From: Spirochaetota bacterium
Lineage (GTDB): Bacteria; Spirochaetota; UBA4802; JAFGDQ01
Length of the DNA stretch: 54,602 bases
Direction: 5' to 3'
Assembly: GCA_043803405.1 (NCBI GenBank)
Contig: JAZDKB010000045.1
Span: forward strand, 1 to 54,602
Part shown: positions 1,784-54,602 of the stretch, piece by piece
Position numbering within the stretch: the first letter of the stretch is position 1
Layout of the letters: each line of letters starts with the position of its first letter
Notes under the pieces: model-generated
What the model saw: the letters and a program-made list of their open reading frames with translations, nothing else
Database searches by the model: none
What the model was told of the DNA's origin: nothing
Translations under genes and position numbers: made by a program

Positions 1784-2365
1784 TTATGCTAAATGTTCCA
1801 AAAGAATTTTAATTCCAATTCCGATAAGAACAATTCCACCGATAATATCTAGCTGAATATTCAGTTTATTTCCAAGTCTTTTTCCAATAAAATATCCAGC
1901 TAACGAAACAGCAAATGTCACTATGCCGATTATTATAGAAGGTATTATTGCTGATATCTTTATCATTGCAAAACTAAGGCCAACTGCCATAGCATCTATA
2001 CTAGTAGCTATGGAAAATATAAAAAGTGTCGGTAAATGACGGCAATCTTGCACTGTCTTTTTGTCGCAAATATTTGTTTCTTTGTTTTTATTAAATGGGA
2101 GTCCAGACCAAATCATTCGACCACCAACAAAAGCTAGTAATCCAAATGCAATCCAATGATCAATCCCCTGGACATAATGACTAAAAGTAACTCCAGCTGC
2201 CCATCCAATTATTGGCATTATCATTTGGAAAACTCCAAAGAAAATTGCCATTCTTAAACCATGCTTTATCTCAAGACCACGAGTAACTGTACTATTTGTG
2301 ATTGCTACAGTAAAAGCATCAAGTGACAGTCCAAACGCTATTCCAAGTAGAACAATAAATTCCAT
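1784..2365 (-). CDS. mntP: manganese efflux pump MntP family protein
   Basis: GLSLDAF, FFGVFQMIMP, DHWIAF and ATSIDA motifs; 193-aa membrane protein. Confidence 0.93.
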   Translation of the reverse strand: MEFIVLLGIAFGLSLDAFTVAITNSTVTRGLEIKHGLRMAIFFGVFQMIMPIIGWAAGVTFSHYVQGIDHWIAFGLLAFVGGRMIWSGLPFNKNKETNICDKKTVQDCRHLPTLFIFSIATSIDAMAVGLSFAMIKISAIIPSIIIGIVTFAVSLAGYFIGKRLGNKLNIQLDIIGGIVLIGIGIKILLEHLA

Positions 2366-2394
2366 ATTTTTTTAATCTTTATGTTGCATATCAA

Positions 2395-2401
2395 ATCTAA
2401 C
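2395..2401 (-). mobile_element. candidate cassette crossover core GTTRRRY (attI-like or secondary site)
   Basis: GTTAGAT on the minus strand about 30 bp upstream of the mntP ATG, with no attC palindrome upstream of it. Confidence 0.45.
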
Positions 2402-2601
2402 AAGTAATCGTATAGTTTCTGTATATCTATTAAAAAAACAAAGTATTAATTTCAATCATTAATTAACAAAATAAGCTGTAACAAATCGAATCCGCGAAAA
2501 AAGCCATTAGCAGCAAAAGCAAAATAAGTTCTCCTTAATTCGACAGCGATAAGCTGAATCGGCACATCAATTCAGAAATTCCTCCGCTTGTGCATTAAAA
2601 T

Positions 2602-2658
2602 AAAATTATCATTTTTCTGATAATTTTTCTTGACATAAAAATATGTATGCCGTAAGGT
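2602..2658 (+). promoter_or_regulatory. operator-like inverted repeat plus sigma70-type promoter of the 119-aa gene
   Basis: AAAATTATCA-N6-TGATAATTTT (2602-2627), then TTGACA (2630-2635), 17 bp, TAAGGT (2653-2658). Confidence 0.5.
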
Positions 2659-2718
2659 TAACGATTTTCAAAATTTTAAACAGAAAATCAAAAATTTCTA
2701 ATTTACAGGAGCAAAAAC

Positions 2719-3078
2719 ATGGTATTCAGCACAACTGAAGTATTTGGTTTTTCCGAATCTCTTATAGAATTTATAAGAAATTCCGCAGCTGTTCTTACTG
2801 AGAAAGGGATTAATACGGAAGCCTGGCTTACTGAACTGGACGAAAGAAAGAAAGCCGCTGTTTCCCTTAATGATGAACAGGAAAAGATGAAAGCGTCAAT
2901 GAAAGAGCTTACAGCCCGCTCGCAGCAGTCTGTAAATATTCTGTACGACGCAGCATCAACAAGGCTCGATGCAATTATAGGCGCGCTGGGAAAGAAAACC
3001 GAATCCGGCAAACAGGCTGCAAAGATAAGGAGCAAGGTCAGGGTTCAGAGGAAAAAGATAGCAGAAAAAACCGCATAA
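2719..3078 (+). CDS. hypothetical all-helical / coiled-coil protein with basic C-terminus
   Basis: 119 aa; AGGAG RBS at 2707-2711; heptad-like middle region; K/R-rich tail. Confidence 0.8.
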   Translation: MVFSTTEVFGFSESLIEFIRNSAAVLTEKGINTEAWLTELDERKKAAVSLNDEQEKMKASMKELTARSQQSVNILYDAASTRLDAIIGALGKKTESGKQAAKIRSKVRVQRKKIAEKTA

Positions 3079-3127
3079 ACTGATAAAAAATACGACAAAA
3101 CAACTTTTTTTGTTCACATATTCTTTT

Positions 3128-3420
3128 TCTCAGGTGATATAAAGAACATCTCAGGAGTAAAAAATATTTTCTCAGCCGAGATGGACTCCGTCCCGGCTGA
3201 GATGAAGCTTATCTCAGCTGGTAGCGCCATATCCCAGGCAGTCAGCTATGCATCCCGGCTAAGATGAACCCTATCTCATATGTCTAAACTCGTATCTCAA
3301 CCGGCAGACGGTCTGTCTCAGCTGAGATGAACTCTATCTCAGGTGAGGTGAACTTCATCTCAGGCGGTCTTGCTCGTTTTTCAGCTGAGATAAAGATTAT
3401 CTCAACCGGTAAAAATATCT
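3128..3420. repeat. degenerate 21-bp tandem array, 14 units, TCTCAG core, palindromic consensus ATCTCAGCTGAGAT
   Basis: Units start at 3128, 3149, 3170, 3191, 3212, 3232, 3253, 3274, 3295, 3316, 3337, 3358, 3379 and 3400 (one unit is 20 bp). Confidence 0.9.
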
Positions 3421-3488
3421 ATCGCCCGGAAGTGTGTTTTCGTTAGAAAGAATTGCCCTTAAAATCTATATGTATATCCGCAAAGGCA

Positions 3489-3550
3489 GCCTCTCGCCCG
3501 GCCGAAGGCTGGGAGAGGGTGGCCGAGCGATAGCGACGGCCGGGTGAGGG
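3489..3550. repeat. REP-like GC-rich double hairpin (CCTCTC...GGGAGAGGG...GGGTGAGGG type)
   Basis: CCTCTCGCCCGGCC-GAA-GGCTGGGAGAGG hairpin, then GGCCG...CGGCC, then GGGTGAGGG. Confidence 0.7.
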
Positions 3551-3704
3551 CACGAAGCAGACTATCCCAAGCCCATAACCGGAAAGGATTTCCCGCTTGA
3601 CATAATTATTATTACACTAAAAATAGTTTTTTTCAATGTAGGTTATAAAGCGTTCCATAGATCATTATTATACATGCCTGAGAACATAACGGAGAAAACA
3701 TAAT

Positions 3705-4895
3705 ATGCCGATATCAAAAAATATTGTTGAATCCATGAACAAATCTTCATGGATAAGAAAGATGTTCGAAGAAGGAATAAAACTGCGCGCGAAATTCGGC
3801 GAAGATAATGTTTTCGATTTCAGCCTCGGGAACCCGGATCTTCCGCCTCCCCCGGAATTCTTTACCGCAATAAGCGGGATATGTTCCAGCAATAAAAAAG
3901 AAAAAACCGTAAATGAACACGGATATATGCCGAACGCCGGTTACCTTGAAACCAGGGAAGCTGTTGCAGTAAGGGTCCTTATAGATCACGGCGTTTCCCT
4001 TAAGGCAGAAAATATCATTATGACATGCGGAGCAGCAGGCGGGCTGAACGTAGTGCTAAAGACCCTGCTTAACCCCGGAGAAGAAGTGATTGTCCCAAAG
4101 CCTTTCTTCGCGGAATACGGGGCTTATGTCGGCAACCACAATGGAAAAATAACTTACGTAGATACCAATGCCGACTTCTCGCTTAACATAGAAAAGATAA
4201 ACGCCGCGATCAGCAGCAATACAAAAGCGATTCTAATAAACTCGCCCAATAATCCTACAGGGAAAGTATATTCTGAAAAAGATATCAAGGAACTGGCCGG
4301 CCTCTTAAACGCACAGGCGAAGAATCACGGAAGAATTATTTATCTTATTTCGGACGAACCATACAGGGAGCTTGTCTACAACGGGGTAAAGGTGCCGAGC
4401 ATACTCGGCAATTACAGTAATTCTATACTCGTAACATCGTACTCTAAAACTCTTTCCATTGCAGGCGAGCGCCTGGGTTTTATCGCTGTAAATCCAATGT
4501 GTGATGATGTTTGCAACCTGCTTGCAGGGATCATTCTATGCAACAGAATTCTGGGTTTCGTAAACGCGCCTGCTCTTATGCAGAAGATACTTCCCGATAT
4601 TATCAACATTAAGGTAAATATTAATATTTATAAAAAGAGAAGGGATATCTTTGTAACGGGCCTCAAAAATTCCGGCTATGAAGTAACGGAGCCCGAGGGC
4701 GCATTTTACATTTTCCCGAAATCGCCTATTAAGGATGATGTTGAATTCGTAAAACATCTGCAGAAATATAATGTCCTGGTTGTTCCGGGCGTCGGGTTCG
4801 GAGGGCCGGGCTACTTCAGGATTTCCTATGCAGTCCCGGAAAATGTAATTAAACGTTCCATTCCGAAATTCAAGGAAGCATTGGAAGCGTTATAA
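3705..4895 (+). CDS. PLP-dependent aminotransferase class I/II (aspartate aminotransferase-like)
   Basis: INSPNNPTG, ISDEPY and SYSKTLSIAGERLG (PLP lysine) motifs. Confidence 0.93.
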   Translation: MPISKNIVESMNKSSWIRKMFEEGIKLRAKFGEDNVFDFSLGNPDLPPPPEFFTAISGICSSNKKEKTVNEHGYMPNAGYLETREAVAVRVLIDHGVSLKAENIIMTCGAAGGLNVVLKTLLNPGEEVIVPKPFFAEYGAYVGNHNGKITYVDTNADFSLNIEKINAAISSNTKAILINSPNNPTGKVYSEKDIKELAGLLNAQAKNHGRIIYLISDEPYRELVYNGVKVPSILGNYSNSILVTSYSKTLSIAGERLGFIAVNPMCDDVCNLLAGIILCNRILGFVNAPALMQKILPDIINIKVNINIYKKRRDIFVTGLKNSGYEVTEPEGAFYIFPKSPIKDDVEFVKHLQKYNVLVVPGVGFGGPGYFRISYAVPENVIKRSIPKFKEALEAL

Positions 4896-14068: not shown

Positions 14069-16030
14069 TCATCCAAGTTTTGCGCCAACAGGAATTTTTT
14101 CATCTACTTCAATCAGAAAAAGTTTGCCCTCATCGTTCTTTGCAGCTAAAAGCATGCCGGATGATTTATGTTTAAAAATAACTGCAGGTTTTAAATTTGC
14201 CACAAGAAGTATCTTTTTACCTGAAAGATACTCAGTATCATAATATTCGGCTATACCTGCAATTATTATTCTATTATCCAGTCCTGAATCTATTTCCAGC
14301 TCAAGCAGTTTGCCGGATCCTTCAATTTTTGAAGCTTTAAGTATCTTTGCGACTCTTATATCGATCTTGGCAAACTCCTTTATATCAACAAGACCTTCAG
14401 GTAATTTATCTTTTGTATTATCTTTCGTTGTATCTTTATCCGTTTTAATATCTTTTTTTTGTACTTCTTTCTTAACTTCCTGTTTTATTTTTTCTTCCCT
14501 TTCAATTTTTGGGAACAGAATACCGGGATCGGATAATTTTTCTCCTGTGCAAAGAGAATCCAATTTATAAAGATCAGAGATATTTTCCGATTTACCTGAA
14601 GCCTGTAAAGCAGCAATTATTTTAGGAGAAGTGTTAATTAATAGAGGAGAAAGCAATGCTGCAACACTGTAAATCGATTCAAGCAGATTCCTCATAACTG
14701 ATGACAATAAGTCAGTATTTTTCTCTTTCGATAACTGCCATGGTTTATTTTCATCAACGTATTTATTCAAATATCTGATAAATTCCCATAATTTCTCAAT
14801 GCCGACACTTGTTTGAAAACCTGAACAGTATTTAATATATTCATCAGCAGATTTACCGAAAAGCACTTTCAGCTCATCTTTCCCTGCTGGAGCAGAGCTG
14901 ACAAACTCCGGTATTTTGCCTTCAAAATATTTTTCCACCATGTTAAAAACACGGTTAACAAGATTGCCAAGGTCATTCGCAAGATCGTAATTTATTCTAT
15001 CTATAATTACTTCTTCATTGAATTTAGCGTCAGAACCGAATGTCATTTCCTTTAAAAAGAAATATCTTATTTGATCATTTCCGAATTTGTTAACCAAATC
15101 CATTGGCTTCACAACATTACCGAGGCTTTTAGACATCTTTGCTTCATCCATATTCCAGTAACCATGAACATTTAAATGTTTAAAAGGCTCTATGCCTGCA
15201 GCGTGCAGCATTGTAGGCCAGAATATGCCGTGAGGCTTTACAATATCCTTTGCAATTATATGATTGGAAACAGGCCAGTATTTTTTAAACTTTTCATCGT
15301 CAGGATAACCTATAGCGCTTATATAATTAATCAGGGCATCAAACCACACATATGTCACATAATTATCATCAAAGGGCAGACTGATGCCCCAGCTTAAACG
15401 TGACTTTGGCCTGGAAATACATAAATCCTCAAGAACGCCGGTCTTTAAAAGTGACATTACTTCATTCTTATATCTTTCAGGTCTAATGAATTCCGGATTA
15501 TTATTTATATAATCCAGAAGCCAAGTTTGATATTTACTCATCCTGAAAAAATAATTTTTCTCTTCGATATACTGAGGTTCTTTATTATGTTCGAGGCATT
15601 TCCCGTTTACAATCTCCTTGTCAGTCAAAAATCTTTCGCAGCCAAAACAATAATTTCCGCCATAACTGCCGAAGTAAATATCGCCCTTATCATAAACATT
15701 TTGTAGTATTTCCCTGACAACTTTTTTATGACGTTCTTCAGTAGTCCTGATAAAATCATCTGGTTTAATCTGAAGATCTTCCCATGTCTTTCGGAATAGA
15801 TTGCTTATGCTATCGGTATAGTCCTGAGGATCAGTATTTTTTTCGGCAGCTGCAATGGCAATTTTATCCCCATGCTCGTCTGTACCAGTTAAAAAATATG
15901 AATCATAACCGAGCATCCTGTAAAATCTGCAAAGAAAATCGGCGAGTACTGTAGTATATGCATGCCCGATATGTGGTTCTGCATTTACATAATAAATAGG
16001 TGTGGTCACATAGAACTTATTATTCATCAA
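14069..16030 (-). CDS. metG: methionine--tRNA ligase with C-terminal tRNA-binding domain
   Basis: TTPIYYVN, HIGH, YVWFDAL and KMSKS motifs; C-terminal OB fold. Confidence 0.97.
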   Translation of the reverse strand: MMNNKFYVTTPIYYVNAEPHIGHAYTTVLADFLCRFYRMLGYDSYFLTGTDEHGDKIAIAAAEKNTDPQDYTDSISNLFRKTWEDLQIKPDDFIRTTEERHKKVVREILQNVYDKGDIYFGSYGGNYCFGCERFLTDKEIVNGKCLEHNKEPQYIEEKNYFFRMSKYQTWLLDYINNNPEFIRPERYKNEVMSLLKTGVLEDLCISRPKSRLSWGISLPFDDNYVTYVWFDALINYISAIGYPDDEKFKKYWPVSNHIIAKDIVKPHGIFWPTMLHAAGIEPFKHLNVHGYWNMDEAKMSKSLGNVVKPMDLVNKFGNDQIRYFFLKEMTFGSDAKFNEEVIIDRINYDLANDLGNLVNRVFNMVEKYFEGKIPEFVSSAPAGKDELKVLFGKSADEYIKYCSGFQTSVGIEKLWEFIRYLNKYVDENKPWQLSKEKNTDLLSSVMRNLLESIYSVAALLSPLLINTSPKIIAALQASGKSENISDLYKLDSLCTGEKLSDPGILFPKIEREEKIKQEVKKEVQKKDIKTDKDTTKDNTKDKLPEGLVDIKEFAKIDIRVAKILKASKIEGSGKLLELEIDSGLDNRIIIAGIAEYYDTEYLSGKKILLVANLKPAVIFKHKSSGMLLAAKNDEGKLFLIEVDEKIPVGAKLG

Positions 16031-52856: not shown

Positions 52857-52962
52857 TTAGAAATAGTTAATAATAATTTACAAAGGATTATTATATTTGT
52901 CTTCCTAAATGAAGAGATGTCTGTAAATAGGAATTGGTACTACCCTGAAAAAGTAGACACGC

Positions 52963-53790
52963 TCATGCTGCCTTTTTCAGCTGATTTTCAAATTCAACCG
53001 GTGTCAGGTATCCAAGGGTTCCATGCCGCCGTTTGCGATTGTAATAGCACTCAATATACTCGAATGTTTTTTGAAACACATCTCGTTCATCTCTAAAATT
53101 ACAGTGATATGCAAGTTCAGATTTATAAATACGAAAGAATGATTCGGCAACTGCATTATCCCAGCAGTTTCCTTTTCGCGACATACTTTGAATAAATTTA
53201 AACTGTGATAATGCTTCCCTGAAAGCATCACTGGCATATTGAGACCCACGATCGGAATGGATCATGGTACCCGGTGATAACTTCCGATTGAACACCGCTC
53301 GATGAAATGCTTTCAGAACCATTTCCGTATCGATGCTGGTGCTTACAGCCCAGCCGACAACCATACGGGAAAACAAATCTATAAACACCGTCAGATACAC
53401 CCAGCCGGCTTGTGATCTGATATAGGTTATATCATTGACGAGAACTTTATCAGGCTGATCAACAGTAAACTCTCGATCCAGAATATTCTCCGCTACCGGC
53501 AGATTATGATTTGAATCGGTGGTCACCACTCGGAATTTTCTGTGGGTTATTGCCCTCAGACCGTTAATTTTCATCTGATTAGCTACTCGATTCTTACCTG
53601 CCTGAACTCCCAGTGCATTAAGTTCTACTCTCATCTTCGGGCTGCCGATTCGTCCTTTGTGTTCTTCGTATATCTCTTTCATCTTTATTGTCAACTCTTC
53701 ATTCTTTTGCTTCCGTTTTGACGTATAATGATTGAGCCACTTATAAAAACCGCTGCGGGACACTTCAAGTACCCGGCACATCTCCTGCAC
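52963..53790 (-). CDS. IS3 transposase OrfB (DDE/rve); frame is open back to the slippery site near 53865
   Basis: DITYI, HSDRGSQY, GNCWDNAVAESFF and YYNRKRRH motifs. Confidence 0.95.
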   Translation of the reverse strand: MQEMCRVLEVSRSGFYKWLNHYTSKRKQKNEELTIKMKEIYEEHKGRIGSPKMRVELNALGVQAGKNRVANQMKINGLRAITHRKFRVVTTDSNHNLPVAENILDREFTVDQPDKVLVNDITYIRSQAGWVYLTVFIDLFSRMVVGWAVSTSIDTEMVLKAFHRAVFNRKLSPGTMIHSDRGSQYASDAFREALSQFKFIQSMSRKGNCWDNAVAESFFRIYKSELAYHCNFRDERDVFQKTFEYIECYYNRKRRHGTLGYLTPVEFENQLKKAA

Positions 53791-53813
53791 CGTAAATTCG
53801 GTGCGGTGTCCTG

Positions 53814-54116
53814 CTATGAACCTGAATATGGATTCGGGTCCTTTGAGAAGATGGCCACAGCTTTTTTTAAGATATAACGCTCTCGTGTAACCCGCGCCAA
53901 CTCTTTTTCCAATTGTCCGACTTTAATTTCCGATGGAAACTCTGGATTAGCTGCATCAGTCCTTTGTTGCCGATAGCTTCCTACCCATCCCTTCAGAACT
54001 CCGTAAGTGATACCAAGGGATTTCTCTACAGACCTGACTCCGCGGCCTTCTTCAACTACCATACGAACCGCTTCTTGTTTAAACTCATCATCATACTTTC
54101 TGTTACTCATAGACAC
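53814..54116 (-). CDS. IS3 transposase OrfA (HTH)
   Basis: RKYDDEFKQEAV...ERYILKKA. Confidence 0.93.
   Translation of the reverse strand: MSMSNRKYDDEFKQEAVRMVVEEGRGVRSVEKSLGITYGVLKGWVGSYRQQRTDAANPEFPSEIKVGQLEKELARVTRERYILKKAVAIFSKDPNPYSGS
53861..53868 (-). other. programmed -1 frameshift site (A7G)
   Basis: AAAAAAAG near the end of orfA; the -1 frame reads KSCGHLLKGPESIFRFI... into OrfB. Confidence 0.85.
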
Positions 54117-54294
54117 ACTCTCCTTTTTCCTAATATAATTAGGGATTTATATGTGTCTACTAAATCAGGGAAGCATCATGCCTTAGGCTAAATTTTTTTA
54201 CTCACCCCCCCCTAACCCCGCTATGTAGTAGTCAAGGGATTTGAGGCTATTTCTTTAAAAATAATTTTAAATTGCTGCTTGTTTGAAGATATTT

Positions 54295-54405
54295 TTCCAA
54301 CCCGCTATTCGTGCTTTATGCACAGTTTAATTATTCGTTTTTTTTAATTAAGCGCTGACAAACCCTCTCACGTATTCAAAGTACAGGGTCAGGGACGTCA
54401 TGCGC
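54295..54405 (-). ncRNA. putative bridge/seek RNA (target- and donor-binding loops)
   Basis: Two parallel guide-15-nt hairpin-guide modules; guides match the flank and the element end (see findings). Confidence 0.7.
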
Positions 54406-54449
54406 CTTTTTACTTTGGAATAATTTCTTTTTAACAAGCTCCTTATTAT

Positions 54450-54602
54450 TTATTCTAAAACACCAATTATATATTCTTCACGAGAAAGAAGAACTGCTCT
54501 TATCCTTAATGCCAGCTTTCTGGCTACAGCAACAATGGCTTTCTTTTTACTGCCACAGTTCTTAACTACTCTGTTAAATTTATCTAATAACGCCGGATCA
54601 TG
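54450..54602 (-). CDS. IS110-family transposase/recombinase, C-terminal 50 aa (partial)
   Basis: Translation HDPALLDKFNRVVKNCGSKKKAIVAVARKLALRIRAVLLSREEYIIGVLE*; contains the KKAIVAVARKL signature. Confidence 0.9.
   Translation of the reverse strand, partial: HDPALLDKFNRVVKNCGSKKKAIVAVARKLALRIRAVLLSREEYIIGVLE

Follow-up and report, generated by a model that had tools for sequence, protein, structure and literature searches.

Does the non-coding end of an insertion sequence spell out both the site into which the element has inserted and the ends of the element itself? The question is raised by the last few hundred nucleotides of a contig (JAZDKB010000045.1, here C45) from a Spirochaetota bacterium, whose assembly (GCA_043803405.1) comprises 3.98 Mb in 54 contigs. 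The whole contig, 54,602 nucleotides long, is the DNA analysed here and is called the window. On its minus strand, positions 54602 to 54220 are the right-hand, or 3′, part of an approximately 1.4-kb IS110-family insertion sequence of the IS1111 type. A preliminary description, made from the letters of the window, had placed a bridge RNA in this 3′ end and proposed that it is programmed against a repetitive extragenic palindromic (REP)-type repeat. We find that the 230-nt 3′ non-coding region very probably encodes a two-loop bridge/seek RNA of roughly 160 nt, and we hold with high confidence that such a guide RNA would spell the insertion repeat and the element's own ends for an IS1111-type recombinase.

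The element and its predicted guide RNA

Only the 3′ end of the recombinase gene lies in the window; the remainder sits on contig C18, whose end overlaps the window by 141 nt with 100% identity. There the reading frame is open and encodes 355 amino acids. The protein matches model NF033542 ("IS110 family RNA-guided transposase") with 183 bits against a cut-off of 140 over model positions 1-340 of 343, and carries the domains PF01548 (DEDD/RuvC-like, N-terminal; 38 bits, cut-off 29; residues 56-160) and PF02371 (Tnp, C-terminal, with the conserved Ser-Gly; 88.8 bits, cut-off 21.3). These matches, with the RNA lying 3′ of the gene, bear out the earlier assignment of a bridge RNA to the 3′ end of an IS110-family element. 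Among solved structural relatives, a comparison that covered the IS110 subgroup only, the C-terminal domain aligns with ISCro4 (9t56, E 2.9e-11) and IS621 (8wt6, E 7e-9), placing PREYSSG over the PRRYESG of 9t56 at the Ser-Gly motif. The stretch NDRIDSRRLA lines up with the D..D motif of ISCro4 and is non-significant by itself.

At least three copies of the element are present in the assembly, every one broken at contig ends, so that three right junctions (C45, C52 and C10) and three left junctions (C18 and both ends of C34) can be read. The element measures about 1404 bp plus the core, with 230 nt of non-coding DNA at the right end (54449-54220) and 97 nt at the left end (C18 292773-292869). 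Copies are 100% identical over 135-141 nt, except that the C52 copy is 99.3% identical over 149 nt and the C10 copy 96.2% over 156 nt, in an alignment that extends into the diverged C10 flank; from 54215 downward the copies diverge. Sub-terminal inverted repeats, CTATGTTAGTAGT on the left and CTATGTAGTAGT on the right, share 12 identical bases with one 1-nt indel. Such repeats in IS1111 elements are described as 7-17 bp (PMC11208160) or 11-13 bp (PMC11187229) long.

Right junctions read CTACTACATAGCGGGG followed by TTAGGGGG(GGG)TGAG in two copies and by CCGGGGGGTGAG in one, while left junctions read GCAGAGAGGG followed by TTTACTATGTTAGTAG in two copies and ATATCAGAGGG followed by TTTACTATG in one. 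All six fall in one repeat type, and the bases common to left and right junctions lie only within a run of Gs. Insertion is site-specific, and target duplication does not extend beyond a short shared core. The features of the element and of the predicted RNA in the window, all on the minus strand, are as follows.

54450-54602, minus: 3′ end of the recombinase gene, last 50 codons and stop (153 nt), with the frame running off the contig (from the open reading frame list and the C18 overlap)
54277-54439, minus: predicted bridge/seek RNA domain, closed by a long-range outer helix (5′ arm 54439-54415, 3′ arm 54300-54277; from folds)
54397-54406, minus: basal stem of the target loop, 5′ arm GGCGCATGAC (10-pair helix in the alignment of 24 sequences)
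54385-54396, minus: putative target-loop 5′ guide GTCCCTGACCCT, complementary to the sense strand of the right flank (flank match)
54372-54384, minus: small hairpin between the two target guides (four pairs, covariation)
54360-54371, minus: putative target-loop 3′ guide GTGAGAGGGTTT, comprising left flank, GG and the first 3 nt of the left end (junction match)
54352-54359, minus: basal stem of the target loop, 3′ arm GTCAGCGC (minimum free energy fold, covariation)
54325-54333, minus: putative donor-loop 5′ guide, of which the last ~6 nt (TTAAAC) are supported (complement of G+TTTA(C), left end)
54310-54324, minus: donor-loop hairpin TGTGC...GCACG (five pairs, invariant in 24 of 24 sequences)
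54300-54309, minus: putative donor-loop 3′ guide AATAGCGGGT, comprising right-end ATAGC, core GG and 2 tail nt (identity with the right end)
54230-54235, minus: TTGACT, likely the −35 half of a promoter formed when the circle is joined (read from the sequence)
54221-54232, minus: right sub-terminal inverted repeat ACTACTACATAG (aligned with left end CTATGTTAGTAGT)
54218-54220, minus: last element base C (54220) and proposed core GG (54219-54218; family register)
54201-54217, minus: right half of the REP-like target, GGTTAGGGGGGGGTGAG (same motif flanking the C52 and C10 copies, at empty sites and in other genomes)

Recomputation found every string and coordinate of the preliminary description present in the minus strand as given. 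Loop 1, the target loop, spans 54394-54360 and is enclosed by the stem of GGCGCATGAC (54406-54397) with GTCAGCGC (54359-54352); loop 2, the donor loop, spans 54333-54299. The unconstrained minimum free energy (MFE) fold of 54449-54215 reaches −50.7 kcal/mol (z = −2.26; 2 of 200 shuffles were as good) and recovers the basal stem and the loop-2 hairpin, which is weak evidence by itself. In this free fold the two loop-1 guides pair with each other because both read an overlapping, near-palindromic site; we treated this pairing as an artefact and refolded the RNA with the guides held open. The arms of the outer helix are paired in both the MFE and the guide-constrained folds. At position 54343, in the A-rich linker between the loops, the window carries A where the C52 and C10 copies carry G, so the genome holds at least two sequence variants of the RNA.

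Guides, flanks and element ends

Each loop carries one guide that is complementary to DNA and one that is identical to it. In loop 1, the flank CCCTAACCC at 54210-54218 is matched by the 5′ guide, which can pair with GGGTTAGGG (54218-54210) through one G-T wobble, just as had been proposed. The loop-1 3′ guide GAGAGGGTTT equals the left junction at 10 of 10 positions in two copies (both ends of C34) and at 9 of 10 on C18. The far junction, outside the window, reads GAGAGGG followed by TTTACTATG. In loop 2, the 3′ guide repeats the right end ATAGCGGG (54224-54217) base for base, which confirms the claimed correspondence with the flank/element junction CCCGCTAT at 54217-54224; its ATAGCGG is invariant in the family. 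The donor 5′ guide has the family consensus GTAAAC, the complement of GTTTAC, and reads TTAAAC in the window. The proposal that loop 1 reads the flanks and loop 2 the element ends is thus upheld by guide-flank and guide-end matches.

These readings allowed a bridge/seek RNA to be recognized in raw sequence and a junction that lies on another contig, unseen in the window, to be predicted. The preliminary description expected GAGAG-GG-TTTAATTA at the far end of the element, and the actual junction is GAGAG-GG-TTTACTAT, a match at 12 of 15 bases. Flank and first element bases were exact, whereas the three misses, all on the element side, came from a loop-2 left guide that had been drawn too long. 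The last 5-6 nt of that guide (TTAAAC) pair with the left end, but TAATTAAA, beyond TTTA, is unmatched.

The 14-mer encoded by the two loop-1 guides occurs exactly once in the 3.98-Mb genome, where 0.006 occurrences are expected, and at no more than one mismatch it occurs at four sites, against 0.29 expected. Three of these four continue directly into the repeat tail GTGAGGG and one into GATGAGGG. The repeat takes the form (CCCCTCTC...)GAGAGGGG-NNN-GGGG(G)TGAG, and a loose pattern for it finds 34 places in the genome, mostly copies of this repeat. Among them are empty sites closely resembling the reconstructed target, for example on C9. No orthologous empty allele of the C52 site was found in related spirochaetes, where the flanks match via short repeats only. 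The motif AGAGGGG-NNN-GGGGTGAG is present in 8 of 21 genomes of the order, this one included, with no control matches; copy numbers range from 2 to 84 per genome (one genome has 84), and the central three bases are TTA, CCG, TCG, ACG and others. Since the motif is dispersed in this way, "REP-type repeat", the term used from the start, is a fair description. The other copies also sit in this kind of target, as had been anticipated, judging by the right flanks of C52 and C10 and the left flanks of C18 and C34.

Relatives of the element provide a larger set of guides and flanks. A protein search revealed a relative with 63-65% identity, present in eight copies in a metagenome-assembled genome (MAG) of Chloroflexia, and a pattern built from three conserved RNA blocks matched 57 metagenome stretches. 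Of these, 22 carry the full signature, with a recombinase homologue (56-73% identity) directly upstream in 20; the other 35 are chance pattern matches. Homologues of the recombinase itself number 1932 at E ≤ 1e-20, are mostly metagenomic and reach 74% identity; a few named ones carry the labels Lentisphaerae or Dehalococcoidia. A search of 20 related genomes yielded no close homologue, and distant ones (28-30% identity) occur in 2 of the 20. This distribution fits horizontal arrival of the element, followed or enabled by guides suited to the host repeat.

Across these relatives the guides change together with their flanks, as the preliminary description had anticipated. The 5′ target guide matches its own right flank at a mean of 7.68 of 11 positions (25 pairs), compared with 4.11 for non-cognate combinations (440 pairs), and none of 20,000 permutations reached the observed mean (19 elements). 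For the 3′ target guide, counting only the six positions upstream of GG, the cognate mean is 4.15 of 6 and the non-cognate mean 1.53; again none of 20,000 permutations did as well (14 elements). Excluded were the right end of locus L056 (an uncertain call), the left end of L080 (only 6 nt), L078 (a duplicate of L056) and, from the 5′ test, L075, which has the same flank as L055. Exact guide-flank matches are found at L066 (10/10) and at L080, L049, L038 and L059 (9/9 each), with unrelated specificities at L066, L080 and L049; matches in the register of the test are poor at L057 (4/11) and L044 (5/11).

Copies in the Chloroflexia MAG whose guide complement is CGACGAGAT or CGACCTGAT include flanks reading exactly those sequences, and other copies lie in CGACCGGAT, with one or two mismatches. 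When empty sites were sought in this MAG, two strict patterns gave nothing or no excess over control. A looser palindrome pattern finds a repeat family (25 forward matches versus 12 in the control), and no site identical to the occupied ones is among its matches. The MAG copies lie within 20-nt palindromes that read ACACNATG....ATNGTGT, for example at 15909-15928 and 17780-17799 of contig C5 of that assembly. Similar palindromes are paired 1.86-1.94 kb apart at six places, resembling the two ends of a further repeated unit.

The family alignment also reveals tails on both 3′ guides. The loop-1 3′ guide consists of left flank, GG and TT[TG], and the loop-2 3′ guide of ATAGC, GG and two variable bases. 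In 13 of 19 elements the first of these variable bases is also the base with which the right flank begins, a score equalled by 9 of 20,000 permutations; the second matches in 5 of 19, which 3150 of 20,000 permutations equal. The TT[TG] tail of loop 1 and the first tail base of loop 2 thus resemble the handshake guides described for IS621 (PMC11208158).

The structure of the RNA was assessed with an alignment of 24 distinct sequences, namely this element and 23 homologous RNAs from the Chloroflexia MAG and the metagenomes. An invariant scaffold, comprising GCATGACG, GT..ACG, GG, GTCAGC, AAACTGTGC, GCACG.ATAGCGG and TGGAA, alternates with hypervariable segments that coincide exactly with the proposed guide positions. 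RNAalifold predicts 19 pairs, six of them with compensatory changes. With the outer helix included, 93.8% of alignment cells are paired, as against 30-47% when the 3′ partners are slid, and 42 cells show double changes, as against at most 14 when slid; none of 500 shuffles reaches the observed covariation score. In the basal stem of the target loop 98% of cells are paired, with compensatory changes at 4 of 10 pairs, and 2 of the 4 pairs of the guide-separating hairpin change in a compensatory manner in 8-10 of the 24 sequences. The donor-loop hairpin speaks neither for nor against pairing, because its five pairs never vary in the 24 sequences. Covariation in homologous 3′ ends, proposed as a check on the original reading, is therefore found in the stems.

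Three of these loci, L056/L078 and L045, have an intact RNA region with a partial upstream match to the recombinase (residues 179-355 at L056/L078 and 3-99 at L045). L087 has an RNA much like that of L045, and tblastn finds no recombinase match in the 961 nt available upstream of it. All of these may be internally deleted derivatives, which could depend on a full copy.

Proposed insertion mechanism, crossover and alternative explanations

In the mechanism that we propose, the recombinase, with its DEDD/RuvC-like domain and serine-bearing Tnp domain, would rely on the RNA to bring the element, in the form of a circular copy, into alignment with a REP-like repeat of the form GAGAGGGG-NNN-GGGGGTGAG. 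Loop 1 would read the insertion site: its 5′ segment would pair with the sense strand of the right flank (GGGTYAGGG), and its 3′ segment, which carries the sense sequence of the left flank and core (GAGAG-GG) and then TTT, the first element bases, would therefore pair with the opposite strand. Loop 2 would read the joined ends, with ATAGC-GG in its 3′ segment and the complement of G-TTTA(C) in its 5′ segment. Strand exchange would then take place at the GG dinucleotide within the G run. The RNA is presumably produced and bound by the recombinase, and the element is presumably active at present.

Joining of the ends is also predicted to create a promoter, TTGACT-N17-TATGTT, for the recombinase and the RNA. 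From TTGACT there are 10 nt to the right end, and with GG and TTTAC the spacer comes to 17 nt before the TATGTT in the left end. Of 17 metagenome loci with a candidate right end, 14 show the hexamer TTGAC[AT] at this distance and two show it at 13 nt; one lacks it. By analogy with ISEc11 (cited in PMC11187229), TTGACT and TATGTT presumably function as a circle-junction promoter.

Several observations count against this interpretation. The RNA is known here from sequence alone, no RNA data set being listed among the public runs; a search of 53900-54602 against Rfam, at E values up to 10, returned no family, and Rfam may have no such model. A simple scan of the RNA strand located neither a promoter-like nor a terminator-like site inside the non-coding region, its two promoter-like matches both falling in the end of a neighbouring IS3 element. 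Since no promoter-like site is present there, the RNA is probably co-transcribed with the gene, as described for the long seekRNAs of IS1111-type elements (PMC11187229). The outer helix TTCCA/TGGAA with its extensions is paired in 78% of cells, which is weaker than the inner stems, and the window sequence aligns poorly in it; some relatives seem to use another closing helix. Agreement between guides and DNA is also imperfect. The flanks of C45 and C52 each require one G-T wobble and that of C10 one mismatch and one wobble, all three right flanks hold one G more than the guide-encoded ideal GAGAG-GG-GTCAGGG, and of the 9 nt of the donor 5′ guide about 5 are complementary to the actual left end. 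The one perfect 14-mer site, on C35, is empty in the assembly. Elements in the permutation tests are not independent, because 6 of the 19 form one clade with similar guides and targets. Finally, several relatives have GA or AA rather than GG at one junction.

This last point bears on where exactly the strands are exchanged. The core was placed at 54219-54218 because of the family ends, and so corresponds to the CC at 54218-54219 that the preliminary description had singled out. Of 19 elements, 11 have GG after CATAGC at the right end, 7 have GA and 1 has AA; left flanks were scored for 14 elements, of which 13 have GG followed by TT[TG][AG]CTATG and L057 has GA. The MAG element has GA at the right junction in 8 of 8 copies and GG at the left in 7 of 7, and L057 shows the reverse. 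Such differences could reflect mismatched cores with biased resolution, or a single-base overlap.

With three Gs at left junctions and four at right junctions, the exact crossover inside the G run is ambiguous by 1-2 nt. The RNA and element might thus be as described while the crossover lies 1-2 nt further along the run, or involves a one- or three-G overlap, in which case the donor junction would carry three or four Gs and the empty target four or three. The junction counts permit target and donor G numbers of (5,2), (4,3) or (3,4), and the guide-encoded ideal target has four Gs. The loop-2 3′ guide ATAGCGGGTT would match a three-G donor junction at 10 of 10 positions, the two junctions of the MAG element fit a one-base overlap, and L066 has its 5′ target guide in a register 1 nt away from that seen here. 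We nevertheless regard a displaced core as rather unlikely. In the family counts GG directly follows CATAGC and directly precedes TT[TG][AG]CTATG in most elements, ATAGCGG and GG+TT[TG] are conserved in the two 3′ guides, and natural empty repeats with five Gs exist (C9).

The RNA could instead be a relic that once guided insertion, its copies now immobile and either RNA or recombinase unexpressed or non-functional. The empty C35 target and the missing promoter-like site in front of the RNA would suit such a history, as would the small number of copies (only three) and the lack of a close homologue in the 20 related genomes, which gives no sign of spread in the lineage. However, the C18 frame of 355 amino acids is uninterrupted, the copies are almost the same in every comparable stretch, one copy lies beside another insertion sequence, and an IS3 element is 39 nt away, which fits recent turnover. 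Low expression from linear copies is, moreover, described as the norm for IS621 (PMC13626964). We therefore consider a fossil improbable.

That the matches are protein-binding repeats or duplicated end sequences in DNA, with an incidental fold, is very improbable. In favour of such a view, the free fold is only modestly better than shuffles (z = −2.26), the donor-loop hairpin is invariant and hence without covariation, and the RNA has been seen only as DNA letters. Against it, compensatory changes preserve stem pairing, guides change along with flanks while the scaffold stays constant, one complementary and one identical guide per loop fits two-strand pairing rather than a repeated protein site, and PMC11187229 reports experiments that demonstrate this architecture in IS1111-type elements.

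Relation to known elements and the neighbourhood of the copies

Read as a bridge/seek RNA, the 3′ region of this element is a new example and not a new mechanism, as both the bridge/seek RNAs of IS1111 elements, with the mechanism of 2024, and REP targeting are already published. Durrant et al. (2024) predicted bridge RNAs in the right end of 93.0% of ISfinder IS1111s (PMC11208160), and Siddiquee et al. (2024) report experimental evidence of seekRNAs for ISEc11, ISPa11, ISKpn4 and ISPst6 (PMC11187229). REP targeting by the IS110 family, IS621 included, has long been known. The suggestion that the guides represent a new programmable recombinase specificity holds only trivially, since every IS110/IS1111 element has a specificity of its own.

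Among the descriptions compared, there is a close likeness to the elements in PMC11187229. Like ISEc11, ISPa11, ISKpn4 and ISPst6, the spirochaete element has a non-coding region downstream of its gene and sub-terminal inverted repeats. As in those elements, the left end extends about 6 bp (GGTTTA) and the right end 3 bp (CGG) beyond the inverted repeats, with the core counted on both sides, and the target is short and specific, with duplication limited to shared bases. The order of the guides is likewise that given for the IS1111 type by Siddiquee et al., in which the top-strand complement precedes (lies 5′ of) the bottom-strand match, and here too the two target matches overlap. A circle-junction promoter, presumed in the present case, is another shared trait (PMC11187229). 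What differs is the target, a spirochaete REP-like repeat; the likeness is judged by descriptions and, on our side, from an element read as sequence alone.

IS621, as described in PMC11208160 and PMC11208158, shares an RNA with two loops, each of them pairing with both strands about a 2-nt core common to target and donor, the REP target, the extra guide bases that read partner DNA in a handshake manner, and a recombinase with DEDD and Ser-Tnp domains, of which the C-terminal domain alone aligns significantly (the 8wt6 match given above). In those descriptions, however, the IS621 RNA lies in the left end, upstream of the gene, whereas here it lies downstream. The strand-specific order of guides is the reverse of that in IS621, and the core is GG here and CT in IS621. 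The partner-reading tails here stand on 3′ guides with top-strand sequence, whereas those of IS621 come after the top-strand-pairing guides (PMC11208158). The donor loop, moreover, is closed by a long-range helix in place of the local stem of IS621 (PMC11208160, PMC11208158). Pseudomonas ISPpu9, ISPpu10 and ISPa11 (Tobes and Pareja 2006, cited in PMC11208160) also occupy one position of a dispersed palindromic intergenic repeat, but differ in host phylum, repeat family and guide sequences.

What distinguishes the present case is that the core is GG and the target a G-rich spirochaete repeat, together with the scaffold map across the clade and the placement of the tails that read partner DNA. 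We suggest, tentatively and with some doubt, that the element belongs to a large, uncatalogued IS1111-like clade with the ends CATAGC-GG and GG-TTTACTATG, a long-range closure of the donor loop, handshake tails on the 3′ guides (TT[TG]; one base), horizontal arrival with guides tuned to the host repeat, and a second IS110-family element at the same repeat. If this is true, the long-range donor-loop helix and the 3′-guide handshake bases could matter mechanistically in comparison with the IS621 paradigm. The catalogue of natural specificities gains an entry from a spirochaete, with GG as core and a G-rich REP-like target. The 24 aligned relatives also amount to a map of scaffold versus guides that could aid in testing whether IS1111-type recombinases can serve as programmable tools.

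Directly upstream of the C18 copy lies the second, unrelated IS110-family element (locus L001, ~2262-3772; C18 ~291261-292772), which is 28-29% identical to the one studied here and whose gene is interrupted by one TAG. It has sub-terminal repeats of its own, GGAAGTGCC/GGCACTTCC. Its 3′ non-coding region contains CTCTAACCC, the complement of which, GGGTTAGAG, resembles the same REP-like motif, and also TATATCAGA, which is its own right end. The C18 copy of the studied element begins exactly at the right end of this second element, and the two seem to target a single repeat unit at points 2-3 bp apart. Assembly-wide tblastn detects IS110-family genes of these two elements only.

The neighbouring IS3-family element occupies 52935-54178 of the window, 39 nt beyond the core of the studied element. 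It contains orfA, with an HTH_Tnp_1 domain, and orfB, with rve domains, is bounded by 26-nt terminal inverted repeats that are 77% complementary, and carries an A7G run at 53868-53861 in the overlap of the two frames. The REP-like repeat unit at this locus looks like a local hot spot for insertion.

Repeats at the contig ends of C20 and C43 and in C4 were considered as further IS110 copies and ruled out by tblastn, which found no gene there with the IS110 recombinase as query; they are a different kind of repeat or mobile element. This repeat ends in CCTTAACTTAATGACATT, abuts a GGGGTTAGGGGGTGAG motif at the C20 and C43 ends, and adjoins the motif inside C4 at ~179.46-179.52 kb.

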